Shown here: positions 1 through 34,880 of the stretch, piece by piece | How positions within the stretch are numbered: the stretch's first letter is position 1 | Layout of the letters: each line of letters begins with the position of its first letter | Origin: an uncultured Granulosicoccaceae bacterium | Lineage (GTDB): Bacteria; Pseudomonadota; Gammaproteobacteria; Granulosicoccales; Granulosicoccaceae | Length of the DNA: 34,880 bases | Reading direction: 5' to 3' | Assembly: GCA_964409445.1 (NCBI GenBank) | Contig: CAYPDN010000005.1 | Coordinates: 1-34,880, forward strand | Notes under the pieces: generated by a model | Told to the model about the DNA's origin: nothing | What the model saw: the letters and a program-made list of their open reading frames with translations, nothing else | Databases searched by the model: none | Position numbers and translations under genes: made by a program

Positions 1-918
1 CGATACATTGCCATCAACAAGATCATCAAAGGTATCCACAAAAACAACATCAAGCTTCCCTGCCCAGTTCTCCTGAAGGTCAGGAGAGAACACAACATCT
101 GTAGTGACCTGACCTGTGACATATTCGAGCTGCCAGTTTCCTCCGAGTGATTCGTGACCAGTAGTATCATCACTGGCTGCAACATCTGCATCGGTAAGCA
201 ATGCAATGTTTTCAATCAGGGAGACACCCTCTTCGGTTGCCGCGAGATTGCAACCATAAATTAGAATGTCAGCATCATCGGTTAACTCATCCGACCATTC
301 GAGAAGTTCGTCTCCGCGTTCGTTTATTACGTCGTTGTTGAGAATCACCGATCCCAACTGCACAGCACCACCGCTGCCGTGAGAAATTATATGGATTGCA
401 GCAACCGGGTCGACGCTCGCCAGAGTAGATGAAATCTTATCGATTCCATCTTCGTCTGAATCAATAATAATTAACTCAAATTCTGTGTCCGGGCGATTTG
501 CACGCAGATCATCGACCATTGCCTGATAGTCAGGGGTGCGGCTATCGATAAATACCAGTTCTTTAAAACTTTGAGGATTATCAGTACTGATCGGGTTTTC
601 GGATATTTCCGAATCAAGCTCATCCATCCCTGATGCGCTGTCCGGGTGTGGAGTATTGTCGAGTGCCACGGTTGCAGGCTCTGCAACAGCAATAGTTCGC
701 TTGAAATCAATCGATGGCGATTCTGCAACCGGCAGCACTGTTTGCTGCCCACCGTGGGGTGGCCAGTCGTGATCGCTTGTTAGCTCGTCTGCCGCTGTAG
801 GTTGGTCAATACCAAGACCAGAAAAAACATCTGCAGAATACAGAACTCTGGATTCTAGTGACTCAACACGGACGACAGGGGATTTGCGGAGGTTCGCCCT
901 GACGCGCTTAAATTTCAA
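1..918 (-). CDS. 5' part (306 codons) of a very large DUF4347-type adhesin-like / secreted repeat protein; continues beyond the left window edge
   Basis: Manual minus-strand translation is open from the TTG at 918 to position 1: (M)KFKRVRANLRKSPVVRVESLESRVLYSADVF...ELVFIDSRTPDYQAMVDDL...AIHIISHGSGGAVQLGS...ADILIYGCNLAATEEG...LTDADVAASDDTTGHESLGGNWQLEY. The LExRxLxSA N-terminal motif and the FID...HIxSHG...LYGC...GADVAAS...GGxWxLE pattern are the DUF4347 signature as I recall it. The ORF is missing from the track because it runs off the edge. Confidence 0.75.
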   Translation of the reverse strand, partial: MKFKRVRANLRKSPVVRVESLESRVLYSADVFSGLGIDQPTAADELTSDHDWPPHGGQQTVLPVAESPSIDFKRTIAVAEPATVALDNTPHPDSASGMDELDSEISENPISTDNPQSFKELVFIDSRTPDYQAMVDDLRANRPDTEFELIIIDSDEDGIDKISSTLASVDPVAAIHIISHGSGGAVQLGSVILNNDVINERGDELLEWSDELTDDADILIYGCNLAATEEGVSLIENIALLTDADVAASDDTTGHESLGGNWQLEYVTGQVTTDVVFSPDLQENWAGKLDVVFVDTFDDLVDGNVS

Positions 919-1373
919 CTCTTAATTTTTCCAGCAACTTTATTGAAGGTTCTTGTGAAACCCATCGGCGGTTCGATTATTTTCTGCAAGCAATAACCAT
1001 TGCTGGCGAAGACAATTTTCAGCAGTGGCCACAGAATTTCAAACCTTTAGAATATTGTTAAATTACAAACAGTTACATGTCTCTGCTTGCCTATACATAC
1101 TGGCAATTAGCGAGCCTAAGCAATGACAGAATCTGTACGCCTCATGGTTTTAGAACGCCTAATTAGTTAAAAACCCGAATAGTGGGAACCAGTAGAGATT
1201 TTCTTAAGCTATAACTCAGCCTGGGAAGTCAAAAAATCTATCGATTATTGCTGTTTAAAATTCGCCCGCGCTGTCTTCAATAACTCAACCTGGCACAGTT
1301 TTTTCTGTTCGCTTTTTTTCTAATTTACTAGCGAAGGGGAATTATTAAACTAGACTTGTATGTGTGACAGGGG

Positions 1374-3620
1374 ATGTCACCTGCCGACAATTGGCAATCG
1401 GGTTACGTGAGAATTTTACCCTCTATAAAAAGCCAGATGTATCCGCCGCCATTGTGTTGCCAAGGAAGTTTGATGGGCCCAGTACCTACCATTGTTATTG
1501 ACACCTTTGGTCAGCTAATCGCCGCTGACCGTCTCGCAGAAGCATTTCTTGGATTCGATGATTTTAGTGATTTAAAAATTACTGATCTCTTTGATGAATC
1601 AAGTCGCCTTGCTGAAATACAAACAGGCAATATCAACCAATGTGAAGCAACGATGATTGTTTCGGGCAGTCGAGTCTCGCTGCACAGCATTGCGATGAAT
1701 ACAGCTGCCGGACCCAACTATGTTGTGAGCCTTATTGGTGTAACGGACTCACTCCGAAAATTTGCAGACCAGAACCAACAGGGTCCTCAATCAGCACTAT
1801 CCGCTCAGACCTACACCTCTGATCGCTTTGACTTAAAGCAGACATACGCTTCTGCAAACACACTTAAGAAGACTACACCACCAATAGATCTGGCCGAATA
1901 TTCTCCTCACGGACTGGTTTTGTTATCAGATAAATTCGAGTTCGAGACTGCCAATTCAGCTTTCTTCTCAATGACTGGTCTTAGTCGCGTTGAAGCCCAT
2001 GGCAGAGGCTGGCTTGCGGCACTGCCACTGGATACCTCGCAAGAGCTGGCCAAATCAGTCGGTAGCGCAGACTGGAGCAGCACCGATGAAATAGAAAAGG
2101 AATGTTTAATAGTTAACAAGCCAGGAGAGCAACGCTGGATTCGGGTTGTCGGTCGGCGGGTCGATGATAATACGCCCTACAAGTGTGGCTATGTACTCAC
2201 CTTTCAAGATATCAATCACCGTAAAAATGCAGATGAACGAAATCAAAAACTGGCGAGCTTCGACTCGCTAACCGGGCTGCCTAACCGACGCGCCTTTGAG
2301 AGCACATTGGCGGAATGCATTGTTCAGAACTCACCAGTGCGCAGTATTCTGGCTGTATTTTTTATCGATTTAGACGGGTTCAAACAAATCAATGACAGTT
2401 ACGGTCACGAAGCTGGTGACCAGCTACTCAAAAAAATAGCGTTGACCATTAGCAAGTCCAGCGCGCGTGCAACCAAGGTAGCCAGACTGGGAGGTGATGA
2501 ATTTACAATCTTACTAACTGATGTCAAGCGCATTGAAGAAGTCAAGCACTTTGCTGCTCGACTGACTCTGATGCTGCAGGAGAGTGTTTCTATAAAAGGC
2601 GTAAAAACCGATGTTTCAGCAAGCATCGGAATCGCTATGCATCATAAGTTACTGCACGACAGGCGTAGCACTGATCGCATAGTTAACGACCTGCTGCGCC
2701 ATGCAGATGCTGCAATGTATGCCGCTAAATCTGCTGGAAAAAACTGCTACCGCTTTTACGGAGCATACGACGACGCATCCATGAACAAACGCTCGCTGCG
2801 TGACACAGACACACTAATAAAAGAGGTAAGCCGTGCGATTAGTGGTGATGACATATTTGTAGAGTACCAACCCCAGGTAGAGACCCGCACCGGGCAAATC
2901 GTATCGTGTGAAGCTTTGATTCGGTGGCATCACCCAAAAGAAGGACTAATAGGCCCCGCTTCATTTGTTCCACTGGTGGAGTCCAGTGGTGGCATGGGGG
3001 AACTGACTATTTGGCTGATTACCAAAATCTGCAGTGATTTTCGAAACTCTTTTGTAGAGTATCGACATGCAAGCAACAGTGACAAAGAACTGTCCGTGTC
3101 CGTTAACCTCTCACCGGCACAGCTTCAGGATAAAAATATTTTGTTGGCTATCGATCAGATAATTTGCAATGAGTCGTTAAAACCCGAGAACTTTATCTTC
3201 GAAATCACCGAGCGCACGCTCATAGCAGATCCAATAAGTGGTCATGACGGAGTAAATTGGCTCCACAGTCGCGGATACAAAGTAGCGCTTGATGACTTTG
3301 GTACCGGCTATTCTTCTCTGTCATATCTGCATCGATTTCCACTGGATGAAATAAAACTTGATGGCAGCTTTATTAAAGATGTAAAGGTCAGCAAGGCATC
3401 ACGCACAATCGTTAGAAGCGTAGTTGAACTGGCTCATTCCCTCGGTCTTCTGGTAACAGCCGAAGGGGTTGAACTTGAATCACAGCTCGAATTCCTGCAG
3501 GAAATCGGTTGCGATCAATGGCAGGGGTTTTTAATGAGTGCAGCAACTCGGCCGGTAGAATTTCTAAAGGTTGTCCGCTCGCACTCTGAGAATTCTAATG
3601 CCAGCCTCGCAATCGCTTAA
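1374..3620 (+). CDS. PAS-PAS-GGDEF-EAL c-di-GMP turnover protein (diguanylate cyclase/phosphodiesterase)
   Basis: 748-aa ORF. GGDEF domain: LTGLPNRRAF, FIDLDGFKQINDSYGH, RLGGDEFTILL. EAL domain: EALIRW, VSVNLS, FEITER, LDDFGTGYSSLSYL, IKLDGSF, AEGVE, QGF. No RxxD I-site is seen before GGDEF. The true start may be the ATG at 1473, preceded by AGGAAG at 1463-1468. Confidence 0.9.
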   Translation: MSPADNWQSGYVRILPSIKSQMYPPPLCCQGSLMGPVPTIVIDTFGQLIAADRLAEAFLGFDDFSDLKITDLFDESSRLAEIQTGNINQCEATMIVSGSRVSLHSIAMNTAAGPNYVVSLIGVTDSLRKFADQNQQGPQSALSAQTYTSDRFDLKQTYASANTLKKTTPPIDLAEYSPHGLVLLSDKFEFETANSAFFSMTGLSRVEAHGRGWLAALPLDTSQELAKSVGSADWSSTDEIEKECLIVNKPGEQRWIRVVGRRVDDNTPYKCGYVLTFQDINHRKNADERNQKLASFDSLTGLPNRRAFESTLAECIVQNSPVRSILAVFFIDLDGFKQINDSYGHEAGDQLLKKIALTISKSSARATKVARLGGDEFTILLTDVKRIEEVKHFAARLTLMLQESVSIKGVKTDVSASIGIAMHHKLLHDRRSTDRIVNDLLRHADAAMYAAKSAGKNCYRFYGAYDDASMNKRSLRDTDTLIKEVSRAISGDDIFVEYQPQVETRTGQIVSCEALIRWHHPKEGLIGPASFVPLVESSGGMGELTIWLITKICSDFRNSFVEYRHASNSDKELSVSVNLSPAQLQDKNILLAIDQIICNESLKPENFIFEITERTLIADPISGHDGVNWLHSRGYKVALDDFGTGYSSLSYLHRFPLDEIKLDGSFIKDVKVSKASRTIVRSVVELAHSLGLLVTAEGVELESQLEFLQEIGCDQWQGFLMSAATRPVEFLKVVRSHSENSNASLAIA

Positions 3621-3699
3621 GCACATATGGTTGCTTGGTAATTTTCCAGGCAGCGTTTATCGCGAAAATATATAATATCTTCACTGGATCCGGTCTAAA

Positions 3700-3713
3700 G
3701 TACAACGTTGTAC
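3700..3713. promoter_or_regulatory. Perfect 14-bp palindrome GTACAACGTTGTAC upstream of the cheB/cheR-fusion operon (candidate operator)
   Basis: Read directly from the sequence. It lies about 210 nt upstream of the ATG at 3921, and a TATAAT hexamer sits at 3671-3676. Function is not demonstrated. Confidence 0.3.
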
Positions 3714-3920
3714 CTAAGAGGGTTTATGCCAGCGAAAATCACAGTCGCGGCCCCACCCTCACGTAGTAGTCGTAATCCCCGCAATCCGGCAATTGCAGCC
3801 ATGTAGAAGTACGAGATGAGATAATTAATCTGACCTTTGGTACCTGCAGCTTCCATTTATTCTGCAAATACATCTCGCTTAACGGTTTTTCAATACCGGT
3901 GGTTTTTTGAGGAGGCAGTG

Positions 3921-6563
3921 ATGAATGACGATACCGGTCTGTTACCAGACCAGAAAACAGAAACATCAACAGCTAAAACCAGAATCGACCAGGCTGGTAA
4001 CCGACCAGTTGACAATGCTTCTGCTGCCAAAACCGAAAACGACCTGCCTTCTCCCAGCCATGTAGTCGGTATCGGAGCATCCGCCGGGGGGCTGACTGCT
4101 CTGCAAAACCTGTTTGACCGCATCCCGGAAAACACCGGAGCCGCTTTTGTTGTAGTGCAGCACCTGTCACCCAACTTCAACACACTGATGGACGAACTGC
4201 TGGCCAAGCATTCAAAAATGTCTGTCACCCTCGCCGAAGATGGCGAACACCTGTTACCCGATCATATCTACCTGATGCGGCCGAATCGCAACCTTATTGT
4301 GGCCGAGGGTAAATTGTTTCTCAACGAGATACACCGAACCGGACACCCCAACCTGCCCATCGATGAATTTTTCAGATCCCTCGCAGTTGATGCACAAAAC
4401 CGCTCAGTCGGTATTATTCTGTCCGGCACAGGCAGTGACGGAAGTCAGGGTGTAAAAGCCCTGCGGGAAGCAGGTGGTTTAGTGATGGCTCAACAACCCA
4501 ACGAGGCAGAGTTTGACGGTATGCCCGTCTCTGCAATCCGCACCGGATACGTTGATGCAATCGGTGATGTCGATGAGCTGGCCAGACAACTGGTTTCATA
4601 CATTCGCCATCCACTAACTGCCAGTAAAAACCGGGTGTTCAGAGAACATCTAGCCTCAAACAACGACTTGCTGGAAAAGATCTTTGTCAGACTCCGTGTC
4701 GCCACAGCTATCGACTTTTCGCTCTACAAACCGTCCACGATAGCTCGCCGAATCGAACACCGCATGGGTATCAACAATATAGAAACGCTACCCGCTTACG
4801 CCGAATTGCTTGATCGAAAGTCTGAAGAATTCGCGTTACTTAAATCAGATCTTCTGATTGGCGTTACACAATTTTTTCGCGATCCGGACGCCCACGCTGA
4901 GCTGGCAAAATCGGTACTACCTGCGATAACCAGCAACAAATCAGCTGATACACCAGTAAGAGTATGGATGGTGGGTATATCAAGTGGCGAAGAAGCCTAC
5001 TCGCTTGCCATAGCATTTAGTGAGCTGCTTGAAAGCTCAAAAACCACAATTCCGATAAAAATATTTGCAAGTGACGCTGACAGTGGCTCTATCGACTATG
5101 CGTCCGCAGGTGTTTACCCACCGTTTATTTCTAACGATGTTAGCGAAAAACGGCTGAGTAAATATTTTAAAATGGATGAAGCAGGAAACTACGTAGTAAA
5201 CAATCGGCTGCGTAACATGATTGTTTTTGCAACCCACAACGTACTCGAAGACCCACCGTTTTCAAATATGGACCTCGTGGTTTGCCGCAACATGCTGATC
5301 TACTTCCAAGCGGAGGCGCAAGAGCGAACTCTTGCACTGTTTAATTTTTCCCTGCGCGATGCAGGCTATTTGTGGCTTGGAAGTTCTGAATCACTGGGAG
5401 GGCAGGCAGATAATTTTAGTGAGCTTAGCAGCACCTCAAAAATTTGGCGTAAAACCCGATCATCACGCATTCCAATTCGCCATATCAATGCTGACCACTT
5501 GCGCAAAACATCAGCCAAAACAGCAAACAGGCCATCCCACGGGCTGACTCAACGCGGCGCTTTTGAACAGAAAAATATTTACCATAATGTTCGTGATCGA
5601 TTGCTGGATGAGTACGGTCCTGACGGAATACTACTCAACCCTGAACATCAGGCAGTACATATTTTTGGTGATTGTAAACACTATCTGGACAGACACAGCT
5701 CCGGACACGTCACCACTCACATTGACTCATTAATTGTGCCTTCTCTCGGTGTGCCTGTTTCTACCTGTCTTGCCAAAGCCACCGAGTCTGAAACCGGTAG
5801 CCATCGGTTGAACGATGTACCTATGCATCACCCCGATAAGCCGGATAAATTAATCAGCATCACCGCAAGACGTGTCACAGATGTTTCCCGCTCAAACGAA
5901 ACCTATTATCTGCTGCTGTTTTCGCAATTCAGGGACAGACCAGTTGAGCGCATCGAAGTCCCGAACATCTCTAATCAGGAGACATACCAGGCTGATACGC
6001 ACACACGAGAGCGGTTGCGCGAACTCGACTTACAGCTGAATGACTCACGTCAGGAGCTTCGCAATGCCTACGCCGAACTCGACACTACCAGTGAAGAGTT
6101 ACAGGCTACCAACGAAGAGCTAATGGCAGCCAATGAGGAACTTCAATCTACCAATGAAGAACTCCAGTCAGTTAACGAAGAACTCTACACTGTTAACACT
6201 GAGTACCAGGAAAAAATAGCTGAACTGATGGAACTGAATACAGATCTGGACAATCTGTTAAATTCGACCGGCTATGGAATAATTTTTCTCGACAGCACTC
6301 TTTCAATCAGACGCTTTACACCGCTAATGGCAAGATACATCAACCTCTTGCCTGGAGACGTTGATCGCCCGATCGGAGATTTCAAAATCAGTCTCAACTA
6401 CCCCGATTTGTTAACCGATCTGAATCAGGTGCTTAGTTCAGGTGAAACCATCGAGAAAAAATCAAGCATGAGTGGAAGCGATAATCAGCTGTCAATTAGT
6501 ATTAGTCCGTACATTTCAACGGATAAAACTATCAATGGCGTTGTTATGACAATCAGAGATTAA
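3921..6563 (+). CDS. CheB methylesterase - CheR methyltransferase fusion with heptad coiled coil and C-terminal PAS domain
   Basis: CheB-like: VVGIGASAGGLTAL, VVVQHLSP, ILSGTGSDGSQG. CheR-like: FFRD, RVWMVGISSGEEAYSLA, IFASDADSGSI, LVVCRNMLIYF. C-terminal PAS-like segment: GIIFLDSTLSIRRFTP. I chose the ATG at 3921 because GAGGAGG (3909-3915) precedes it by 5 nt. The track ORF starts at 3837 with a non-homologous extension. Confidence 0.88.
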   Translation: MNDDTGLLPDQKTETSTAKTRIDQAGNRPVDNASAAKTENDLPSPSHVVGIGASAGGLTALQNLFDRIPENTGAAFVVVQHLSPNFNTLMDELLAKHSKMSVTLAEDGEHLLPDHIYLMRPNRNLIVAEGKLFLNEIHRTGHPNLPIDEFFRSLAVDAQNRSVGIILSGTGSDGSQGVKALREAGGLVMAQQPNEAEFDGMPVSAIRTGYVDAIGDVDELARQLVSYIRHPLTASKNRVFREHLASNNDLLEKIFVRLRVATAIDFSLYKPSTIARRIEHRMGINNIETLPAYAELLDRKSEEFALLKSDLLIGVTQFFRDPDAHAELAKSVLPAITSNKSADTPVRVWMVGISSGEEAYSLAIAFSELLESSKTTIPIKIFASDADSGSIDYASAGVYPPFISNDVSEKRLSKYFKMDEAGNYVVNNRLRNMIVFATHNVLEDPPFSNMDLVVCRNMLIYFQAEAQERTLALFNFSLRDAGYLWLGSSESLGGQADNFSELSSTSKIWRKTRSSRIPIRHINADHLRKTSAKTANRPSHGLTQRGAFEQKNIYHNVRDRLLDEYGPDGILLNPEHQAVHIFGDCKHYLDRHSSGHVTTHIDSLIVPSLGVPVSTCLAKATESETGSHRLNDVPMHHPDKPDKLISITARRVTDVSRSNETYYLLLFSQFRDRPVERIEVPNISNQETYQADTHTRERLRELDLQLNDSRQELRNAYAELDTTSEELQATNEELMAANEELQSTNEELQSVNEELYTVNTEYQEKIAELMELNTDLDNLLNSTGYGIIFLDSTLSIRRFTPLMARYINLLPGDVDRPIGDFKISLNYPDLLTDLNQVLSSGETIEKKSSMSGSDNQLSISISPYISTDKTINGVVMTIRD
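6090..6215 (+). repeat. Six tandem 21-bp (7-codon) imperfect repeats encoding a heptad coiled coil inside the CheB-CheR gene
   Basis: SEELQAT/NEELMAA/NEELQST/NEELQSV/NEELYTV/NTEYQEK, in frame with the CDS. This is a coding repeat, not a CRISPR-like array. Confidence 0.85.
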
Positions 6564-6592
6564 TAATTTAGCCAACTAAACAGACTAATGTC

Positions 6593-7072
6593 GTGAAAAA
6601 TAAACCTTCCAAAAGCAAGGTTGATTCCGAGAGTACCGATCAATCTAAAGAGTCGGGTTTTTCTATACTACTGGTAGATGACGACTCTGTTCTCGTGGAG
6701 TTGTGGCAGCAATATCTGGTAAGCCAGGGTCATCAGGTTGATTGTTGCGGCACAGTAGCTGATGCCACTGTATTGTTGCACAGTAAGGTTTACGATTTAT
6801 TGATTGTCGATATCTTTTTGCGCCAGGACGGACAGATACTTGCCGAAGGTGGCGTTACATTAATCAACAGAGTCAGAATACAAGATGGCTTCAATGACGC
6901 CAGAGATGATCGCATGGCGATTCTGGCAGTCACTGGTGCCGGTACGGGTTCACACGGAAAGTTCACTGCACTGCATAGTGTAAATACACTGACCGATGGC
7001 AGCCTGCAAAAGCCAGTCAGATTAGAAACTCTCGGCCGCGAAGTTCAGCGTCTTTGCACAGTCACCGGGTAA
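6593..7072 (+). CDS. Stand-alone response-regulator receiver (CheY-like REC) protein
   Basis: ILLVDDDS (acidic pocket), DLLIVDIFL (phospho-acceptor Asp), LAVTG (Thr), QKP (Lys-Pro). GTG start. The stop TAA at 7070-7072 is 4 nt before the next gene. Confidence 0.8.
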   Translation: MKNKPSKSKVDSESTDQSKESGFSILLVDDDSVLVELWQQYLVSQGHQVDCCGTVADATVLLHSKVYDLLIVDIFLRQDGQILAEGGVTLINRVRIQDGFNDARDDRMAILAVTGAGTGSHGKFTALHSVNTLTDGSLQKPVRLETLGREVQRLCTVTG

Positions 7073-7076
7073 AACA

Positions 7077-9659
7077 TTGCACTACTCTTTACTTTATATA
7101 AGTCAATTCGCAGTCCCCGTTTCCAGCAAAACACTCGACGATATAAGAACCCAGTCTGCTCTTCTTAATCAGTCAGCCAATGTCAGCGGACTGCTACTTT
7201 CAACACCTGGCTACTTCTGCCAGTTTCTGCAAGGCAGCAGAATTGATGTTGAACAAACCATGTTGAGAATTAGCAAAGATTCCCGGCACAGAGAAATTGC
7301 TACTCTGCTAAAGACAGATTTACCGGAGACGCTGTTCCCGGGCTGGGGTATGGCAACAAGCCTTATACCAGCAGGCGATATAGCGACAGAAATCGAGCTG
7401 GCTTATCGGGATCGATTGGCCGACCTCAGTGCTGTCGACAGGCTCATGTCAATCATGCAGAGGTTTCGACCACTCGATGGTGTCGAAAACCCCGCCGTCG
7501 TCATTGACTCAGAATTTAATAAAGAGCTTGCCCTGACAAAACTCGCAACTAACAATGATGCAGTTCAGGGCTTGCTGGAACTGGGTAAAGCAATATTTAC
7601 TGATTGCGATATCGCACTGGCAATTCGTGAACCGGGTGATAATGGCTATAGCTCTCAGGCAAATACCGAAGCAGATAAAAATGCTGTTGCACTTTTGATA
7701 AACCAACTACCAAACAGGCATTTCACGCAAAACGCAAAGTTCTGCAGGCTTGATCATAACGGAAGCCTTCAATGGTCACCTGCCGCCCAACCCGAAAACC
7801 CGACTTCTGCGATTACCACCTTCCCAAATTCAGGCTACATCGCTGCAACCGGGATAGCGGTAACAGACGCTAAACAAGAAATCATTGGCACCTTGTGGAC
7901 GTTAAGTAGCGTAGCAGGAACACTGGTCAACGCAGCGGACACAAACAAACTTACGCAGTTGGCCCTATCCATAGCTGAACAAATTGAACTTCGCCGTGTA
8001 GCTCTTCTAACCGACTTACAAAAACAAACATCACAGCGCCAACAGCTCAATATCGCCGCAAATCTACGCCGACTTGAAGCGGTAGTTAATGTAGCCAGCA
8101 GCGCGATTGTCGCACTCGACCGAAAAGGCCGCATCCTCATGATCAACGATGCCGCACGCAAGCTGTTTGGTTTTCATAACGAAAAGGTACCATTCGACTG
8201 GCCGAGCCCAACCGGTTTTCTGGACCCGGGAACACTCATTCCGGTTACTGATAGCAGTTCTCCGCTGCACTATGCGATAGCCAGGGCAGATCCTGAATTC
8301 AACAATAAAATGAAGCATGCGATCAAAAATAAATTGTTTGCACGGAAATGCCATCTATCCAATGATCTGTGCTTTCTTCGAGTAACAGCCACCGAGGTCG
8401 ATGAGATCGATTCTGCAATATGGTCAGTACTTGTATTTGATGATGTTACGGCACTTGAGTCCGGCAGAGAGCGCATTAGACGCAGTGATCGTCTTGAAGC
8501 TCTGGGTCAGCTAACTGGTGGAATAGCCCACGACTTTAACAACATACTTGCAACTATTCAGAGTTCAGTGGAGCTTGCGAAGACCGAAACGGATCAGGTA
8601 CGCCAAAATCAACTTCACGATATTGCCATAACCAGTGTGGAGCGCGGTGCAGCACTCACCAATCGCCTGATTACTTTTGCACTGGCAAATCCAACCGTCG
8701 CGGAGGTACACAGCTTAACTGACGTGATGCAGTCACTGCTTGAACTCGCCGAGAGCGGTATTGCTGAAGATATTAATTTGACTATCTCACCTTTCTCGCC
8801 ATCTGTCGGAGTGAAGTGCGACGCGGGGCAATTGGAAAATGCACTTTTAAATATACTGATCAATAGTCGTGATGCGATTCGCGACAGTGGTGTCGGCGGT
8901 CAAATGTTGGTGGAAGTCAATGTGATACCACAAGACCAAAGCCAATCAGGCAACAATAGTGGTTCTGATGGAAACACACTGGTAGAAATTGTATTGTCAG
9001 ACGATGGACCAGGCATGTCAGAGGAAGTTATTCGGCGTGCAACAGATCCTTTCTTCTCGACCAAGCGCGACAAAGCAAGCAGCGGCCTGGGGCTTTCTAT
9101 GGTTTACGGTTTTGTACAACAGAGCGGTGGAGAATTGTTAATAAAAAATCTTCGCGACTCAGAAAACCCGCTATCCGGCACCCAAATTACTTTAACACTC
9201 GAGTACGCAACCAAAGAGCCACCTGCCCCACAGGCTGCAACAGACAATCACGCCAGTGACACGGCTGCAAATCATCAAACCGCGAATATATTGCTGGTCG
9301 AAGATGAACCGGAACTCGCACGAGTGCTGGAGCTCACCTTGCGGCGAAGTGGACACAATTTGCAAGTAGCTCATAACGGCCACGACGCAAGGATGATTTT
9401 ACAAAGCGATATTGAACTTGATTTACTCTTAACCGATATCGTACTGCCAGGAGCAATAGACGGGTACGCTCTGGCAAAAGATGCATCGAACTTACGGCCT
9501 GAACTGCGGGTTGTATACTTAAGTGGATACGCGCAGCAACGTTCAGACGCATCTTTACTGGGACCAGTTTTGTCTAAGCCTGTTTCGACTCGGCAACTGA
9601 TGGCTGTCGTACAAAGGGAGTTGCAAACTGCAGTTGATCTTTCAACTGTTGAATCCTAG
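7077..9659 (+). CDS. BLUF - GAF-like - PAS - HisKA/HATPase - REC hybrid sensor histidine kinase (putative blue-light sensor kinase)
   Basis: N-terminal BLUF: HYSLLYISQ (Tyr), LLNQSANVSGLL (Asn), YFCQFLQG (Gln), ISKDSRH, FPGWGMA (Trp/Met). DHp: LGQLTGGIAHDFNNIL. N/G boxes: ENALLNILINSRDAI, DDGPGM, FFSTK, GLGLSMV. REC: ILLVEDEPE, DLLLTDIVLPG, VVYLSGY, SKP. TTG start, tightly coupled to the upstream REC gene. Confidence 0.85.
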   Translation: MHYSLLYISQFAVPVSSKTLDDIRTQSALLNQSANVSGLLLSTPGYFCQFLQGSRIDVEQTMLRISKDSRHREIATLLKTDLPETLFPGWGMATSLIPAGDIATEIELAYRDRLADLSAVDRLMSIMQRFRPLDGVENPAVVIDSEFNKELALTKLATNNDAVQGLLELGKAIFTDCDIALAIREPGDNGYSSQANTEADKNAVALLINQLPNRHFTQNAKFCRLDHNGSLQWSPAAQPENPTSAITTFPNSGYIAATGIAVTDAKQEIIGTLWTLSSVAGTLVNAADTNKLTQLALSIAEQIELRRVALLTDLQKQTSQRQQLNIAANLRRLEAVVNVASSAIVALDRKGRILMINDAARKLFGFHNEKVPFDWPSPTGFLDPGTLIPVTDSSSPLHYAIARADPEFNNKMKHAIKNKLFARKCHLSNDLCFLRVTATEVDEIDSAIWSVLVFDDVTALESGRERIRRSDRLEALGQLTGGIAHDFNNILATIQSSVELAKTETDQVRQNQLHDIAITSVERGAALTNRLITFALANPTVAEVHSLTDVMQSLLELAESGIAEDINLTISPFSPSVGVKCDAGQLENALLNILINSRDAIRDSGVGGQMLVEVNVIPQDQSQSGNNSGSDGNTLVEIVLSDDGPGMSEEVIRRATDPFFSTKRDKASSGLGLSMVYGFVQQSGGELLIKNLRDSENPLSGTQITLTLEYATKEPPAPQAATDNHASDTAANHQTANILLVEDEPELARVLELTLRRSGHNLQVAHNGHDARMILQSDIELDLLLTDIVLPGAIDGYALAKDASNLRPELRVVYLSGYAQQRSDASLLGPVLSKPVSTRQLMAVVQRELQTAVDLSTVES

Positions 9660-9776
9660 AGGGTCGTCCCGAATGTTCTTTGACACCTGCTATCGTCAGG
9701 GCAAGCAAAAAACGGCTAGCGGCAGCACGGCACATTAGTCAGGGATAAGGGACAATACTCAAAGGTTCGGACTGTG

Positions 9777-9983
9777 TCAGTCCTGTACACCGATTCTCGC
9801 AACAAAGCGTCTCTGGAGTTCGATTCGCTGCCGCAAGCGGTTGATCAGCGGGTAGATACTCTGCTGCCTGCGGTTAAGCTCTTCTATGTGCTTCACCAGT
9901 GTCTGATCAGCGTTGTCGCTGCAGGGGCATGTATCAACTGAAGCTGCCAGGTTTAGATCGGCAGCGCTATTTTTCGCTTGCAT
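9777..9983 (-). CDS. Hypothetical small protein (68 aa), coding status doubtful
   Basis: This is the only ORF of any length in a 600-bp gap between convergent genes. I recognised no homology and no clear RBS. A GGACTG/CAGTCC hairpin overlaps its stop codon. Confidence 0.2.
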   Translation of the reverse strand: MQAKNSAADLNLAASVDTCPCSDNADQTLVKHIEELNRRQQSIYPLINRLRQRIELQRRFVARIGVQD

Positions 9984-10257
9984 GGTTCTGTGTTCGACTA
10001 ACTTTTTTCTTGTTATCTAAGGCGCGTAAACGAGATTTTAAGTTCCTTTTTCCTTCACGGCCTGCGTCCACGACCCACCCAAATCTCGGTCGCCTAACTG
10101 GATGAGCAAACTCCGTACCACTTACCCTGCGTGCAGTTAGTTGTTCCGAATACCACAGATTGTCGGAACATCTAAAGAGCAACGGGCCTGCCGGTTCCTC
10201 CCCATCACGGGGCTCATCATTCGCTGTGACTTCCCCCTGCCAGGCTAACTATTTCGT

Positions 10258-11361
10258 CTAACGCACAGCGATGATAAGGCCCGCAGACCGGTCAGCAACC
10301 GCTATGTGTGTATCATTCGCGGCTACCCCGACAGCTTGCTGGAGCGGCAGGCTTAAGCTGTCGACGACTGTTTCTGTAATCGGGTTTACAGTGTCCACAA
10401 TGCTGCGTTCCACACTTACCACAAACAGCTGACTACCGTCCGTCGCAACATTTGTTGGTTGATAGCCAAGGGGGATGAGAGAAAGCGCATCAGATACAGA
10501 TCTGTCAATTACCTGCAGACCATCTGCCGCAAAATGAGCAACATACAACTGCTCGTTTAAAAACTCGCTTTCCACCGGAAGATTTGCGGGTGCGAAAGGA
10601 ATATCAAAGCCGCCGGTAAACGGAGCCGGCGTGAGTACAACAACCTCAGGTATGTTTAGTATATTTCCATTGCCATCAAACTCGACGGTTTGAATACCCC
10701 AGTTGGCCACAAGCCCGAGATCCTGCGAATAGAAAGCCACCGCTCCACCATCGGTTGCTGCAACATGTACATCCGGGTTACCGGTCCGACCATCCACCTG
10801 CGGTATACCCGAAATGCTCAACGACAGAGAGCTCGCATCGTACGTATAGACCTCTGTGTTAGATCCGCCAGAACCTGCTGATACCACCAAAACTCCATTG
10901 GCAGATGAAATACCAGAAAATATTGAGAAATTAGTATTTACCGTAGTGATCACGGCAGGTTCCAACGGATTAACAAGATCGAATTGGGTCAGGGTATTTC
11001 CAGATTGTGTAAATAAAACTCCAAAGCTCGAATCGCCACTAATATCATCAGCCGGGATCGATACAAAGTTGCGTTCCAGTGAATTCAGATCAACAACTTC
11101 AATTCCAGTATCGCAGGCGCCATAGGCAAACTCATCAATTATCACGACGTTCTGACAACCGTTGCCTGCCAAACTATTAGTATCTACCACGGCAGTGGAG
11201 TCACCACTCGGCACGCCCGGCTCACCGTTTTCCTCAGCACCGAAAACCTCTTCGGCCGACTCTTGTCCAATCGATGCAATATCCTGATCATCCGAAGAAC
11301 ACGCGTTGATGAAAACAATGAACGTAAAACATACAAAAAGGCGAACGCGAATTTTAATCAT
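10258..11361 (-). CDS. Lipoprotein with beta-propeller-like (LVIVD-like) repeats
   Basis: Signal peptide plus lipobox: MIKIRVRLFVCFTFIVFINAC|SSDD. Recurring segments of the type GIEVVDLNS, DGLQVIDRS and AGLIIAVR resemble LVIVD repeats. The product call is tentative. Confidence 0.7.
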   Translation of the reverse strand: MIKIRVRLFVCFTFIVFINACSSDDQDIASIGQESAEEVFGAEENGEPGVPSGDSTAVVDTNSLAGNGCQNVVIIDEFAYGACDTGIEVVDLNSLERNFVSIPADDISGDSSFGVLFTQSGNTLTQFDLVNPLEPAVITTVNTNFSIFSGISSANGVLVVSAGSGGSNTEVYTYDASSLSLSISGIPQVDGRTGNPDVHVAATDGGAVAFYSQDLGLVANWGIQTVEFDGNGNILNIPEVVVLTPAPFTGGFDIPFAPANLPVESEFLNEQLYVAHFAADGLQVIDRSVSDALSLIPLGYQPTNVATDGSQLFVVSVERSIVDTVNPITETVVDSLSLPLQQAVGVAANDTHIAVADRSAGLIIAVR

Positions 11362-25107: not shown

Positions 25108-26478
25108 TTAGTGAGTCAGTATTTGTGAGAGGAATCGCGAAGGCTGTTCTGTCGTTAATGGCAGAATCCATTCGCTGGACAATTGACGCCTGTTGATCGT
25201 TAGTAAATTAAGAGACGGATCAACCATCAACTGAGACGGCCGACTATTAAGCGCACAATTGGCTTTCACGGCGACACTTATTGGAACGTGTCCCTGTCGC
25301 TGCCAGTCTTCCTCAAGAAAATGTGCAAATTGAAGCAGCATATCTGGTATGCAGGACATTTTTCGGCGCTGTTTTTTGGTGAGGTAATCAATAGGATCTA
25401 CCGTCCACTCCTGAGTATCGGTTTTAACCGTGTAGATTGCACTGCCCCGTTTAGATCTGAGCTTCATGCGCCAGCTGAATCGATGACCATCTTCGTTCCA
25501 GGCGACGTTCCCGGGCAGCGCCCAGTTTCGAAAAGGAACAGCGATCTGCAGCAACAGCCAGCTGAACATCACTAACAAAACAAGCTGGTGCCTGGGGGCG
25601 AACGAATGATCAAACGGTTTAACCGACATTGAAGTCAGCGACCTGCTGGTAAATCGAGCAGCGAATTTCTTTGGCCAGTCCGGATCAAGAACCAGCGTAC
25701 TGGCGAACAAGGTAAACCACGGAAAGATACCGATGTTAAAAACAAAGTGGTTCATCACATGGAATACGAAATAAACAGCCAATACCCATAGTCGCGTACT
25801 TTTGAACAATAGCAATGGTGCCCCCACCAGATGCAACAGGACAGCGCCATAAGCGCCGAGTGCTATACCGATATCACTGGTCAGTGTGGTAAAAAACGGC
25901 GGGAACTGCGGTCTGGTTTCAACCATCCACATACGCAGTGGCTCAAGGTTGAGCCAGTCAGGATTAAGCTTTACCAGCCCCGCGTGTATCAATATTATTT
26001 CAAGCTGGACTATCAACACTATGATTGCCCAGCGCGGTATGGTTCTGGATGCGATAGATGCATCGCGGCGGGCATCCAGCGACAAATAAGCGTTTGCCGG
26101 CACAAACAGCATAACGACGCAGAACAAAATCACCATGTAGTAGTGATTCAGGTAGAGCGCTTCATCAAGCAGAAATGCGTAACTGAAACCCACCGTAAAT
26201 ATTAGTAGCGCGAGCCGGTAATGGTACCCAACCATAACCGCAATGGCCGCTATCGTAAGCACAGACCAGTGCAGATAAAGACCGATGCCCGGCCAGGGTT
26301 CCACCCATTCGAAGTACTTATACTTAAACAGCATTGACGGCTGCAAATACTTGCAGGACAGACAAAGGAAAAACTGATTGACGCTATCGAATATTAGAAG
26401 AATTCCGAAACCGATTCTGAAGATAGCAAGGGAACTCGCATCAACCTGATCAAAGAGTTTTTGGAATAATTTATACAT
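25108..26478 (-). CDS. HTTM-domain membrane protein (vitamin K-dependent gamma-carboxylase-like)
   Basis: N-terminus VDASSLAIFRIGFGILLIFD followed by a polytopic membrane region typical of HTTM proteins. Confidence 0.75.
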   Translation of the reverse strand: MYKLFQKLFDQVDASSLAIFRIGFGILLIFDSVNQFFLCLSCKYLQPSMLFKYKYFEWVEPWPGIGLYLHWSVLTIAAIAVMVGYHYRLALLIFTVGFSYAFLLDEALYLNHYYMVILFCVVMLFVPANAYLSLDARRDASIASRTIPRWAIIVLIVQLEIILIHAGLVKLNPDWLNLEPLRMWMVETRPQFPPFFTTLTSDIGIALGAYGAVLLHLVGAPLLLFKSTRLWVLAVYFVFHVMNHFVFNIGIFPWFTLFASTLVLDPDWPKKFAARFTSRSLTSMSVKPFDHSFAPRHQLVLLVMFSWLLLQIAVPFRNWALPGNVAWNEDGHRFSWRMKLRSKRGSAIYTVKTDTQEWTVDPIDYLTKKQRRKMSCIPDMLLQFAHFLEEDWQRQGHVPISVAVKANCALNSRPSQLMVDPSLNLLTINRRQLSSEWILPLTTEQPSRFLSQILTH

Positions 26479-26820: not shown

Positions 26821-27228
26821 GTGAGCCGCGAAGAGATACTGCTGGTCTACGATCGCGAATGCCCGGCGTGCAATGCCTATTGCCAGATCGTACAAATACG
26901 CAAAAGTGTTGGCGAACTGAAAATTGTAGATGCAAGAGAAAACAGTGATGTGCTGAATGAAATCACAGCGCGAGGGCTGGATATCGACCAGGGAATAGTG
27001 CTTAAAATGGGAGACCAGCTCTACTACGGTTCTGATGCAATAAATGCGCTGGCTTTAATAGGCAGCCGATCCGGAATTTTTAACCGACTAAACTACTGGA
27101 TTTTCAAATCAAAAACTATTTCAAAAATACTCTATCCGGTACTGCGATCTGGTCGGAATTTACTACTAAAAATACTGGGCAAATCAAAAATCAATAATCT
27201 GGGTATTGAAAATAATCATAATTTCTAG
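26821..27228 (+). CDS. DCC-family (DUF393) thiol-disulfide oxidoreductase-like protein
   Basis: LLVYDRECPACNAY carries the D-x-x-C-x-x-C signature of the family. GTG start, 6 nt after AAGGAG. Confidence 0.75.
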   Translation: MSREEILLVYDRECPACNAYCQIVQIRKSVGELKIVDARENSDVLNEITARGLDIDQGIVLKMGDQLYYGSDAINALALIGSRSGIFNRLNYWIFKSKTISKILYPVLRSGRNLLLKILGKSKINNLGIENNHNF

Positions 27229-32113: not shown

Positions 32114-34880
32114 CTATGATACACCGGCCTTGTTGTACTTGATTAAAGTTCTGGCTCTTTGGGCAAGTAAATCGGTAAAATCGTCACCTTTAAGGATAGC
32201 GCGTTTTCCACTACCAATGCCGGTGGTGTAGTCCTTAACGAAAAACGGCACACTGTCATAGCGACGCACCACATCCCCTAAGGTATAAACGTGCTGCCAA
32301 CTGGCAATAATATCTGCAGCTAACTCACGATTTTCAACGATGGATTGATTATTCTGCAGTTTTATCTGCAGCGAGTTTAGTTCTACCATCGACCGGACCT
32401 TTCCTCCATACCGCCCTGTCTTTTTTAACGCTAACTGCTGACCGGCCACAGATTTAAATTCTGCATTCACTGCTGCAATATAGGGAGCGACAGATACTTT
32501 AGTTGCAGCGTGCACATTACTCACCCGGTGGCGGTGAATACCCGCCTCCGCGTTGAGGTAACCATAAGCGTAAGGGCCATCCACCTTTATTAGCACAGGG
32601 TCACTATCATCAAGTGGTTCGCAAAGCAGTGTTACCTCACGACTCATCTCACGACACCAGGCGAGATAAATCTCATATAATTCATCCCTCCCTAAACAGG
32701 AATCACCCACAGGCTCCAATAACACCAGCGCCTCGTGATTATACTCATCGCCAAAAACCAATAGCTCCAGTTCAGATCGTTCAATGTCCTTATCCAGCAA
32801 GTGTCCGGCAGTGTCAGCATAGGCTAACTGCTCTCGCGCCGGACTGTGCTCAATAGTTCGCACCAGATCTTCAACCCGGTTGCTCAGTCTTTCGAGACGA
32901 TTGAGTGTCTCGTTGATAGACTCTGCGCGCTTTAGCATATGCATTGCATTATCACGATTTTGCCAGAACTCACCAGTGTCTCTGCTTTGATCAATCTCTG
33001 CCAACTCTCGTCGCAAAGCTTTCACATCGATCGACTGTTCCAGTGATTCAATCCGCTCAGCACGTGTTGCAAAAGCATTCTGTAACTCTGCAATTCTGAC
33101 TATGCTGGTGGCTGCTTTCTCATTTATGAATTCGGGCCTGGGTTTACTTACATCACTGTCCGAAAACGACTTAACGATTGTTCTGCCATCGACACTTGAC
33201 AGGTTAACCAATGCGCCTGCCGGAACATGGTTCTCCATCAGGAATGCACCAATTGGCAACGCTAAGCGACGCTGCACTTCGCGCTTTAACGCCCGTGCAC
33301 CATATCTGTCTGAATAGCCGTATTGCACAATCGCGTCAACCACACTGTCATCTATGTCGATAATCAGATTTCTACTAACGATACCACTGCGCTTGATAAT
33401 CTTTTTTACCTCTCCCTGAGCAATCTGACGAACATGAGATTTATCAAGTGCGTGAAAAACCAAAACATGTTGAAATCGGTTTAAAAATTCTGGTCTGAAA
33501 TAGTTCTCCAATACGTGCAGCGGAACTGTGGAAGTTTCTTCCTGCGTGAATCCGGGAGTTGGTCGCGACATTTCACTCGCTCCCGCATTGGTAGTACATA
33601 TCACAATAGTATTGCGAAAATCGATGGTCTGGCCATCAGGTTGGGTCATGCGGCCTTCATCAAGCAGCTGCAACATTAAGTCATAAATGTTGCTGTGTCC
33701 TTTTTCTATCTCATCAAACAGTATTACCTGAAAAGGTTGTGCTCGAACCGGATCAATTAACAACGCAGACGAGTTCGCGCCACCCTGTCCGATCAGCTGT
33801 TGAAATGAGTTGTAGGTGGCGTACTCCGACATATCAAATCTGAGTAAGCGTTGCGCACTTCCATACAGATACTCCGCCAGCGCTTTTGAAAGTTCAGTCT
33901 TTCCAACACCGGTCGGGCCTGTAAACAGGAATGTACCAATTGGCTGATTCGGATCACGCAGTCCTGACTTAAACAAGGTTATTGACTCAACCACCGCTTC
34001 GATCGCCTGTGCCTGACCAAAAATTCGCTGTTGAAACCACTTGCGGATTGTGCCGGCGGACACAGTCATGTTGCGTGAAAAAACAAAAGCTGGTAACCCG
34101 GTATACATTGAGAATACTTTGTCTACGAAGACAGTATCGATCGGCTCAACTCGGTTGATCGCTGCTTTTTCCTGAGCGTAGCTCTGAACTCTTTCTATTA
34201 ACGCTAAGCGAGTACCGGGACCGGGATCCGGAGGCGTAAAGTTTTCAGTCAGTTCCTTGAGGTGTGGATGAAATTCATCATCAAAAGGATGATCGATATA
34301 AATCTCGGCTTTTTCAGTGACTATTTGATCCACCTGCTGTGGTGACAACGGCTCAAGCAGTATTCGGTGAAAAAGGTCAACAAAGCCCGGCACTCGCAGC
34401 ATGCGCTTATAACCTTCCGGAGTGACTTCACCCACAAGTACAACATCACCACTCTTCATCAACGGGCGCAGTATATCCAGACTACTGTGCTTGTCGTTTG
34501 AAGACTGCCCCATTCGTGCGAGGTTTGCTACATCAACAAAGTACAACACAGCATTTCGTTTCGCAGCGCTTTCAACATAGCCCATTAGCTTGGTGGGCCA
34601 TTCACCAAGATAACGTGTTCCCACCAGAATAGAAGAGGCCGATAGCTCCAGACATTGCTGACCAGACTCTTTAAGTGCAGCAGCTATACCCAGAATGGTA
34701 CTGGTTTTACCACTTCGGGCCGGACCAACCAGCAATACCGATTTACGCTGCTGGATAGCCGCAATGCCGTCTCGAATCTCTTTGTCGCGAAACCTGGGTA
34801 CAAGCGCACTGTCCCGCTTAACCATTTTAGTGAGGTTACGGCTATCCCGGGACAGATCATCTTCAATCTTTTTTGATCCT
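32114..34880 (-). CDS. Clp/Hsp100-like double AAA+ ATPase fused to a C-terminal class-I release-factor-like (PCRF + RF-1-like) module; 5' end probably outside the window
   Basis: D1: LLVGPARSGKT, with Walker B position LYFVDV. D2: FLFTGPTGVGKT, VILFDEIEK, ICTTN, PEFLNRF, YGARALKR. C-terminal ~320 aa are collinear with RF1/RF2: EFWQNRDNA, GDEYNHEALVLLEPVGDSCLGRDELYEIYLAWCRE, GPYAYGYLNAEAGIHRHRV, SVAGQQ (at the GGQ position), VRRYDSVPFFVKDYTTG. The frame is open from 34825 to 34880 (GSKKIEDDLSRDSRNLTK-M...). Confidence 0.85.
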   Translation of the reverse strand, partial: GSKKIEDDLSRDSRNLTKMVKRDSALVPRFRDKEIRDGIAAIQQRKSVLLVGPARSGKTSTILGIAAALKESGQQCLELSASSILVGTRYLGEWPTKLMGYVESAAKRNAVLYFVDVANLARMGQSSNDKHSSLDILRPLMKSGDVVLVGEVTPEGYKRMLRVPGFVDLFHRILLEPLSPQQVDQIVTEKAEIYIDHPFDDEFHPHLKELTENFTPPDPGPGTRLALIERVQSYAQEKAAINRVEPIDTVFVDKVFSMYTGLPAFVFSRNMTVSAGTIRKWFQQRIFGQAQAIEAVVESITLFKSGLRDPNQPIGTFLFTGPTGVGKTELSKALAEYLYGSAQRLLRFDMSEYATYNSFQQLIGQGGANSSALLIDPVRAQPFQVILFDEIEKGHSNIYDLMLQLLDEGRMTQPDGQTIDFRNTIVICTTNAGASEMSRPTPGFTQEETSTVPLHVLENYFRPEFLNRFQHVLVFHALDKSHVRQIAQGEVKKIIKRSGIVSRNLIIDIDDSVVDAIVQYGYSDRYGARALKREVQRRLALPIGAFLMENHVPAGALVNLSSVDGRTIVKSFSDSDVSKPRPEFINEKAATSIVRIAELQNAFATRAERIESLEQSIDVKALRRELAEIDQSRDTGEFWQNRDNAMHMLKRAESINETLNRLERLSNRVEDLVRTIEHSPAREQLAYADTAGHLLDKDIERSELELLVFGDEYNHEALVLLEPVGDSCLGRDELYEIYLAWCREMSREVTLLCEPLDDSDPVLIKVDGPYAYGYLNAEAGIHRHRVSNVHAATKVSVAPYIAAVNAEFKSVAGQQLALKKTGRYGGKVRSMVELNSLQIKLQNNQSIVENRELAADIIASWQHVYTLGDVVRRYDSVPFFVKDYTTGIGSGKRAILKGDDFTDLLAQRARTLIKYNKAGVS

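Follow-up and report, generated by a model that had tools for sequence, protein, structure and literature searches.

The gene at positions 7077-9659 of a 34,880-nucleotide stretch from an uncultured Granulosicoccaceae bacterium (NCBI assembly GCA_964409445.1, contig CAYPDN010000005.1, positions 1 to 34,880 of the forward strand; hereafter the window) encodes a single polypeptide in which a BLUF photoreceptor domain precedes a hybrid histidine kinase. This architecture, noticed in a first-pass annotation made from the letters of the DNA, is confirmed, and the computationally checkable parts of that interpretation were all supported. We consider it likely, judging from the sequence, that the gene encodes a blue-light-regulated, flavin adenine dinucleotide (FAD)-binding, cytoplasmic hybrid sensor histidine kinase. 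The gene and its domains are laid out as follows, with residues numbered from the TTG start.

7077..9659, + strand: BLUF-GAF-PAS-HisKA-HATPase-REC hybrid histidine kinase gene, 860 aa, TTG start, uninterrupted open reading frame (ORF), Pfam domains
7077..7364, + strand: BLUF core, residues 1-96; PF04940, in-register structure alignment, family conservation
7365..7466, + strand: two BLUF capping helices (a3, a4), residues ~97-130; full-length model
7512..7931, + strand: divergent GAF-fold domain, residues ~146-285; AlphaFold model and Foldseek
7932..8096, + strand: long connector helix from GAF to PAS, residues 286-340; predicted structure
8097..8447, + strand: PAS domain, residues ~341-457; PAS_8 E 8.8e-7, PAS E 6.3e-5, predicted PAS-like sheet
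8448..9212, + strand: DHp (HisKA) and catalytic ATP-binding (CA) domain, CckA-like; HisKA, HATPase_c; His485 at nt 8529-8531
9285..9626, + strand: C-terminal receiver (REC), residues 737-850; Response_reg E 3.5e-12; Asp787 at nt 9435-9437

The Pfam BLUF profile PF04940, expected at the N-terminus by the first-pass annotation, matched residues 3-93 of the kinase over its full length (profile positions 2-92 of 92) with 70.3 bits, against a cutoff of 25, and E 1.5e-19. A search of the PDB sequences with residues 1-150 returned BLUF proteins only, with OaPAC (5x4t) as the best match at E 3.8e-13 and further matches to bPAC, TePixD, AppA, PixD, BlrB-type proteins and BlrP1; because of these E-values, the match lies far beyond chance. 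The motifs that had been quoted as a BLUF signature are all present and in register with OaPAC 5x4t. Tyr7 (YSLLYIS), Asn31 (LLNQS), Gln49 (FCQFLQG), Trp90 and Met92 (both in GWGM) align with OaPAC Tyr6, Asn30, Gln48, Trp90 and Met92, and Arg70 and His71 of the DSRH motif are in register as well. The full-length model predicted the topology b1-a1-b2-b3-a2-b4-b5 for residues 2-96 at a predicted local distance difference test (pLDDT) score of 80-91, with strands at 2-11, 37-42, 46-53, 71-82 and 93-96 and helices at 17-33 and 55-67, which corresponds to a ferredoxin-like fold. The capping helices follow at 101-111 and 117-128.

About 20 homologous clusters (P0001-P0020) with 38-99% identity have the BLUF...HK-REC architecture (HK, histidine kinase) in common, and all of them come from metagenomes or metagenome-assembled genomes (MAGs). 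Assembly GCA_964649465.1 contains the homolog with 70% identity. The family alignment is shallow, comprising 16 sequences that span 39-75% identity. N31, Q49, R70, H71, W90 and M92 are invariant in 16/16 family sequences, and Y7 is missing only in the N-truncated P0011. When the window protein was compared to twelve distant members, the mean identity was 62% in the DHp domain, 53% in BLUF, 49% in the CA domain, 48% in the receiver, 46% in the capping helices and 41% in PAS; the connector helix (36%), the BLUF-GAF linker (20%) and GAF, the least conserved domain (19%), had the lowest values. The BLUF core is conserved like the catalytic domains, which argues for purifying selection on BLUF function.

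These values bear on the possibility that BLUF is a light-insensitive relic or a structural module, the kinase being controlled instead by ligands of the GAF-fold and PAS domains or by the PAS_10 domain of a partner protein (see below). Two further putative sensor domains do lie between BLUF and the kinase, BLUF and GAF are connected by a low-confidence linker, and degenerate effector domains occur among BLUF proteins, as exemplified by the inactive EAL domain of YcgF. A relic would, however, be expected to decay, whereas the photocycle residues are all conserved though the family is at 39% identity overall and at 19% in GAF, and BLUF is among the best-conserved domains of the kinase. Because BLUF is conserved like a catalytic domain, we disfavor a light-blind relic and regard it as improbable.

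Directly before Gln49, in the FCQ motif, lies Cys48 (nt 7218-7220), which is invariant in 16/16 family members; OaPAC has Phe there. Redox sensitivity and packing against the capping helices are both possibilities for its role. The BLUF flavin might accordingly serve chiefly to sense redox state or oxygen, or integrate light and redox signals as in AppA, with the kinase reporting the redox state and not light alone. Flavins are redox-active, AppA does integrate light and redox signals, and an invariant Cys at this position is unusual when compared to the aligned solved BLUF structures. The redox sensing of AppA is, however, done by a separate heme-binding SCHIC domain and not by BLUF, and Pfam revealed no SCHIC domain in the kinase. 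The side chain of Cys48 should moreover face away from the flavin, judging from strand geometry, and no specific pointer to redox sensing emerged among the results. We therefore regard a domain that senses redox state, or integrates it with light, as improbable, and retain a light-sensing BLUF domain as the preferred reading.

Finally, an artefactual fusion, whether from chimeric assembly or from a gene call that runs a short BLUF gene into a separate kinase gene, might be suspected from the TTG start codon and from close homologs recorded without BLUF (P0002, P0003 and P0007), but it is effectively refuted and thus extremely improbable, since the same unbroken ORF is found on many independent contigs (ENA, JGI, NCBI, Logan), BLUF and kinase vary together within the family, and the BLUF-less record of P0002 is a gene-calling artefact. 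For P0002 (locus L088, 1476-1643) this could be shown directly: read in frame, the DNA 5' of its annotated start gives LHYSLLYISQFAVPV... and thereby the full BLUF N-terminus. We therefore rejected the BLUF-less homologs as natural variants. P0003 and P0007 are as short at the N-terminus as P0002, and BLUF was probably lost from their records through a miscalled start as well. The TTG start of the window gene is supported because the N-terminus that it gives, MHYSLLYIS, is identical in most family members and because the upstream receiver gene ends 4 nt before it. Since non-ATG starts are miscalled, protein databases and domain censuses undercount the BLUF-kinase architecture.

The rarity of the family was assessed by an exhaustive HMMER profile search with residues 1-330 against 1.84 billion cluster representatives. 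At a threshold of E 1e-3, 15,016 representatives with BLUF were matched, and at 1e-30 only 8, the latter being members of the BLUF-kinase family and fragments thereof. Ten long multidomain proteins were scanned among the best 150 of the 15,016 matches; one was a member of the BLUF-kinase family, and the other nine carried two BLUF domains, in some cases together with a cyclase domain, and included no kinase. The BLUF-GAF-PAS-HK-REC family is thus rare; further independent BLUF-kinase lineages may exist, since inspection covered the best 150 of the 15,016 BLUF matches. A word-index search with the BLUF domain alone matched a single fragment and was uninformative. Scanning reference genomes with the motifs GGIAHDFN and DRLEALG[HQ]L gave only generic hybrid kinases among the matches listed, a result that cannot settle whether the family is present in cultured species; among these listed matches, none of the generic hybrid kinases matched before query residue 264.

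The description of the BLUF domain as wired directly to the kinase proved inaccurate, since ~375 residues separate BLUF from DHp: the two capping helices, a linker, the GAF fold, a 54-residue helix and PAS. The "GAF-like region" of the first-pass annotation held at the level of the fold and failed at the level of sequence. Residues ~100-330 had no Pfam match, GAF included, in any of the 16 family members at E up to 1, and the family profile of the region had no match to PDB sequences at E up to 10. Residues 96-330 were modeled with AlphaFold from the 16-sequence family alignment, with a moderate pLDDT of 76.3. Foldseek comparison of this model to the PDB gave 161 matches at E up to 0.001, and all 50 listed were GAF-containing chains, including phytochrome GAF/PHY domains, DosS, DosT, a cyanobacteriochrome GAF3 and the GAF domain of an HD-GYP protein. 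The top matches had E-values of ~2e-5 to 3e-4 (8w26 at E 2e-5). Target-normalized template modeling (TM) scores were 0.56-0.58 for the isolated GAF domains 2vzw, 2y79, 2w3g and 5m85 (0.57-0.58 for the DosT and DosS GAF domains, with 0.57 for DosT, 2vzw) at a sequence identity of 8-16%. The predicted structure therefore suggests that region 146-285 is best called a GAF fold and not a member of the Pfam GAF families. The long connector was predicted as a single helix at 286-339 (54 residues) in the full-length model and appears in the 96-330 model as a helix at positions 191-234 of that model.

The PAS domain, the complete HisKA/HATPase core with His485 as the H of IAHDFNN, and the C-terminal receiver were all borne out by Pfam, with PAS_8 and PAS at 331-377, HisKA at 476-535, HATPase_c at 582-710 and Response_reg at 738-845. 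The full-length model placed PAS at 343-456, the DHp helices at 472-503 and 507-536, and the receiver at 737-850. The protein has no transmembrane region. H485, N592, D642/G644/G646, F659/F660 and G670/G672, which represent the H-box and the N, G1, F and G2 boxes, are invariant in the family, as are D743, D787, S816 and K834 of the receiver. The closest PDB relative of the kinase core was the DHp-CA structure 5idj (E 2e-32), which we take to be Caulobacter CckA, a bifunctional kinase/phosphatase. A GGxAHDFNN H-box and a hybrid receiver are features common to both proteins. The BLUF kinase differs from CckA in lacking a transmembrane region and in scoring far under the CckA equivalog cutoff: the NCBIfam CckA and PRK13557 matches were below the curated cutoffs, with 197 versus 1000 bits for CckA. 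A CckA-like feedback of cyclic di-GMP (c-di-GMP) on the CA domain was considered and weakly rejected. At the positions of the c-di-GMP-binding residues of CckA, presumably K518 and W523, the BLUF kinase has Gln and Glu, and a Tyr is kept.

The kinase gene is the last of four genes that lie together on the same strand. The other three are:

6593..7072, + strand: single-domain response regulator, 159 aa; Response_reg 35.1 bits; stop codon 4 nt before the kinase start
3921..6563, + strand: CheB methylesterase-CheR methyltransferase-coiled coil-PAS_10 fusion; CheB_methylest E 5e-55, CheR E 1.3e-50, PAS_10 E 5.7e-20
1374..3620, + strand: PAS-GGDEF-EAL protein, 748 aa; Pfam GGDEF E 4e-42, EAL E 3e-67

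The adjacent REC protein to which the first-pass annotation had pointed thus exists, directly upstream of the kinase. A receiver gene occupies the same place at loci L001, L002, L003, L004, L006, L007 and L088. The complete order GGDEF-EAL, CheB-CheR-PAS_10, REC, BLUF-kinase recurs at L001, L004 and L006, where the kinase identities are 70, 41 and 39% and those of the CheB-CheR fusion 89, 66 and 59%, respectively, which makes the fusion the better conserved of the two; part of the cluster was found on the shorter contigs L002, L003, L007 and L088. Genes downstream of the kinase vary between lineages. The gap between the CheB-CheR and REC genes is 29 nt and that between REC and kinase 4 nt; the GGDEF-EAL gene lies ~300 nt upstream of the CheB-CheR ATG at 3921 in the window and ~0.1-1 kb upstream across loci. 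As a negative control, 80 generic hybrid-kinase loci of reference genomes were inspected, and a full-length CheB-CheR neighbor was found at 0/80; the association with CheB-CheR is therefore specific to BLUF kinases in this sample. The stand-alone receiver had no match at E up to 1e-10 in the same 80 loci. It also had no PDB sequence relative at E up to 0.001, and a CheY-, CheB- or Rcp1-like class was not assignable. Scans for consensus promoters and terminators over 900-10400 gave the same counts as shuffled sequence and did not delimit an operon, and Rfam had no match in the window.

The CheB-CheR fusion is of the KEGG K13924 type, with matches to CheB_methylest, CheR_N and CheR. Its mechanical ORF starts at TTG 3837; alignment with three homologs favors ATG 3921 (MNDDTG...). 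Ser82 of the GASAGG motif, His109, Asp201 and the SSGEE S-adenosylmethionine (SAM) motif are invariant in the homolog alignment, and we assume them to be catalytic from what is generally known of CheB and CheR. The CheB part consists of the catalytic methylesterase domain only and has no N-terminal receiver; the regulatory domain of the fusion could be encoded separately, as the stand-alone receiver at 6593-7072. Between CheR and PAS_10 lies a coiled coil (window 5994-6266; residues ~720-810 of the ORF from 3837) that is almost wholly invariant: the homologs are only 58-68% identical over their full length, yet this segment shows just an A/S and a T/S exchange. The heptad of the coil, EEL[QM][AS][ATV]N, resembles what we believe to be the methylation-site consensus of chemoreceptors, Glu-Glu-x-x-Ala-Ser/Thr. 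Going by this sequence, the coiled coil may be the enzyme's own methyl-accepting substrate. No signaling domain of a methyl-accepting chemotaxis protein was found in the window proteins scanned. The GGDEF-EAL protein has intact RLGGDEF and CEALIRW motifs and lacks a receiver domain; it was therefore rejected as a direct phosphoacceptor.

A plausible sequence of events can be drawn from BLUF chemistry and from the predicted anatomy of the kinase. Light absorbed by FAD in the BLUF domain would lead to Tyr7-Gln49 proton-coupled electron transfer and a rearrangement of hydrogen bonds, whereupon strand b5, which carries Trp90 and Met92, and the a3/a4 capping helices would move. The change would be relayed through the GAF-fold domain, the 54-residue helix and PAS to the DHp helices, and would alter the balance between autophosphorylation of His485 and phosphatase activity in the CckA-like core. 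Such a shift of the kinase/phosphatase balance by light may occur because the core is CckA-like and CckA is, to our understanding, bifunctional. Asp787 of the protein's own receiver, the single-domain receiver whose gene ends 4 nt upstream, or both would accept the phosphoryl group, and the outputs would be the receiver-less CheB/CheR methylation enzyme and c-di-GMP turnover. The kinase thus probably feeds methylation and c-di-GMP signaling. Both are likely outputs because the cluster persists while the kinase diverges to 39% identity; CheB-CheR is put forward because of synteny and of a Rhodopirellula fusion protein described below, and c-di-GMP because of synteny alone. If these outputs are correct, light would control a lifestyle switch in marine Granulosicoccaceae-like Gammaproteobacteria, affecting surface attachment, biofilm or motility.

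Several points weigh against this proposal. Flavin binding, photocycle and kinase activity of the family members are inferred from sequence. The global confidence of the full-length model is low (pLDDT 69.5, predicted TM score (pTM) 0.33), which makes its inter-domain geometry unreliable. BLUF joins GAF through a linker of ~15 residues (~131-145) of low model confidence and poor conservation, and not through a continuous helix. The GGDEF-EAL protein has no receiver and its gene is set apart from that of CheB-CheR, so that its link to the kinase is one of synteny only. Finally, no histidine phosphotransfer (HPt) family match was found in the scanned window proteins (ORFs of at least 120 aa) or in the conserved cluster; such a partner may be encoded at another place in the genome.

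The four genes might also, taken together, form a self-contained, chemotaxis-like light-adaptation circuit without chemoreceptors. The BLUF kinase would then phosphorylate the stand-alone receiver acting as the detached regulatory domain of the CheB-CheR fusion, the fusion would methylate and demethylate the near-invariant EELQ[AS]T heptad of its own coiled coil, and it would tune the neighboring PAS-GGDEF-EAL enzyme via PAS_10. That all these steps hold jointly appears rather unlikely. Should they do so, the c-di-GMP output would adapt to the background light intensity, and the cluster would be the first case in which methylation-based adaptation serves a photoreceptor two-component pathway; a function would also be ascribed for the first time to CheB/CheR fusion proteins, which are widespread. 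No functional study of these fusion proteins was found in the literature searched, only mentions of the KEGG number.

Among known systems, the LOV histidine kinases are the obvious counterparts of the BLUF kinase. They comprise Brucella LOV-HK, Caulobacter LovK with the single-domain receiver LovR, the hybrid LOV-HK of Pseudomonas syringae and Erythrobacter EL346. Like the BLUF kinase, they have a cytoplasmic flavin blue-light sensor N-terminal to HisKA/HATPase, are often hybrids with a C-terminal receiver and are often paired with a single-domain response regulator. The sensors themselves differ: LOV has a PAS fold and forms an adduct between flavin mononucleotide (FMN) and a cysteine, whereas BLUF has a ferredoxin-like fold, binds FAD and works by a hydrogen-bond switch without a covalent adduct. 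In LOV histidine kinases a single J-alpha-type helix leads to DHp, while the path in the BLUF kinase passes through GAF and PAS. The phytochrome histidine kinases (Cph1/Rcp1, bacteriophytochromes) are alike in having a GAF-fold domain, a long signaling helix, DHp and an adjacent single-domain receiver, and phytochrome GAF/PHY domains were the best structural matches of the GAF-fold model. In contrast to them, the BLUF kinase has no bilin-binding PAS-GAF-PHY module, its GAF domain matches no GAF sequence profile, and its chromophore domain is BLUF. The own receiver and the upstream receiver as phosphoacceptors resemble the pairs LovK/LovR and Cph1/Rcp1. OaPAC, bPAC, BlrP1, YcgF (BLUF-EAL) and AppA have the same photocycle residues and C-terminal helices, with the BLUF domain being closest to that of OaPAC, but their output is a cyclase, a phosphodiesterase or an anti-repressor instead of a two-component kinase.

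LOV histidine kinases have been reviewed (PMC6798134, PMC4844311). A Rhodopirellula fusion protein listed in supplement S1 of PMC4844311 contains CheB, CheR, PAS, a flavin photosensor, a kinase and a receiver, which is the parts list of 3921-9659 in the window. It differs in being one polypeptide with a LOV sensor, whereas three genes and BLUF are found here, and the two are likened by architecture only. This analogy suggests an independent link of CheB/CheR to a flavin-photoreceptor hybrid kinase and a coupling that recurs across phyla.

The existence of BLUF-kinases is already acknowledged in the literature. According to a 2019 review they exist and are uncharacterized, and the natural photoreceptor kinases that have been studied use LOV, phytochrome or rhodopsin sensors. 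According to the main text of a 2014 census, 64% of BLUF proteins are short and 34% have EAL domains. The word "Kinase" is absent from its BLUF table of ~1,705 bacterial proteins and occurs 704 times in its LOV table. A paper on a BLUF photoreceptor from Spongiibacter (PMC8805636) contains no occurrence of "histidine kinase". The first-pass statement that the architecture lacks a biochemically characterized example agrees with the literature searched, in which no characterized BLUF-histidine kinase was found and in which the 2014 BLUF census table has no kinase. The BLUF-GAF-PAS-HK-REC family, its rarity and habitat, and the conserved four-gene cluster, on which the first-pass annotation was silent, appear to be undescribed.

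Photoreceptor histidine kinases are the main model of sensor-kinase signal transmission and the basis of bacterial optogenetic tools for gene expression. A kinase driven by BLUF would bring in a switch of different chemistry, with no covalent adduct and typically fast dark recovery, and would show how a non-PAS, ferredoxin-fold sensor reaches the DHp bundle through GAF and PAS relays. The swap of sensors will not astonish the specialist; it fills an acknowledged gap and has optogenetic appeal, and the CheB-CheR link is testable. The partnership with CheB-CheR and GGDEF-EAL would further provide a handle on the function of CheB/CheR fusions and on light-to-c-di-GMP coupling in non-phototrophic marine surface bacteria.

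The remaining genes of the window include a neighboring Prc protease, 72-77% identical to its nearest named relatives, proteins of Granulosicoccus and Granulosicoccaceae MAGs, a result that puts the contig within or close to this marine gammaproteobacterial family. A 367-aa protein with a hydrophobic, Cys-containing N-terminus (a possible lipoprotein signal) and no Pfam match is encoded at 10258-11361 on the - strand; its gene is convergent to and directly downstream of the kinase gene in L001, L002, L003 and L088 and is not found there in L004 and L006. The 902-aa protein encoded at 32114-34825 (- strand) has an unusual combination of a ClpB-like AAA_2 ATPase with D2-small (residues 293-537) and PCRF, the peptide chain release factor domain (604-775), together with a weak N-terminal match to a STAND-like P-loop. 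Finally, a bacterial HTTM/vitamin-K-dependent gamma-carboxylase-like protein (HTTM E 2.6e-71 and a VKGC lumenal domain) is encoded at 25108-26478 on the - strand, and divergent from it, at 26821-27228 on the + strand, lies the gene of a DCC1-like thiol-disulfide oxidoreductase.

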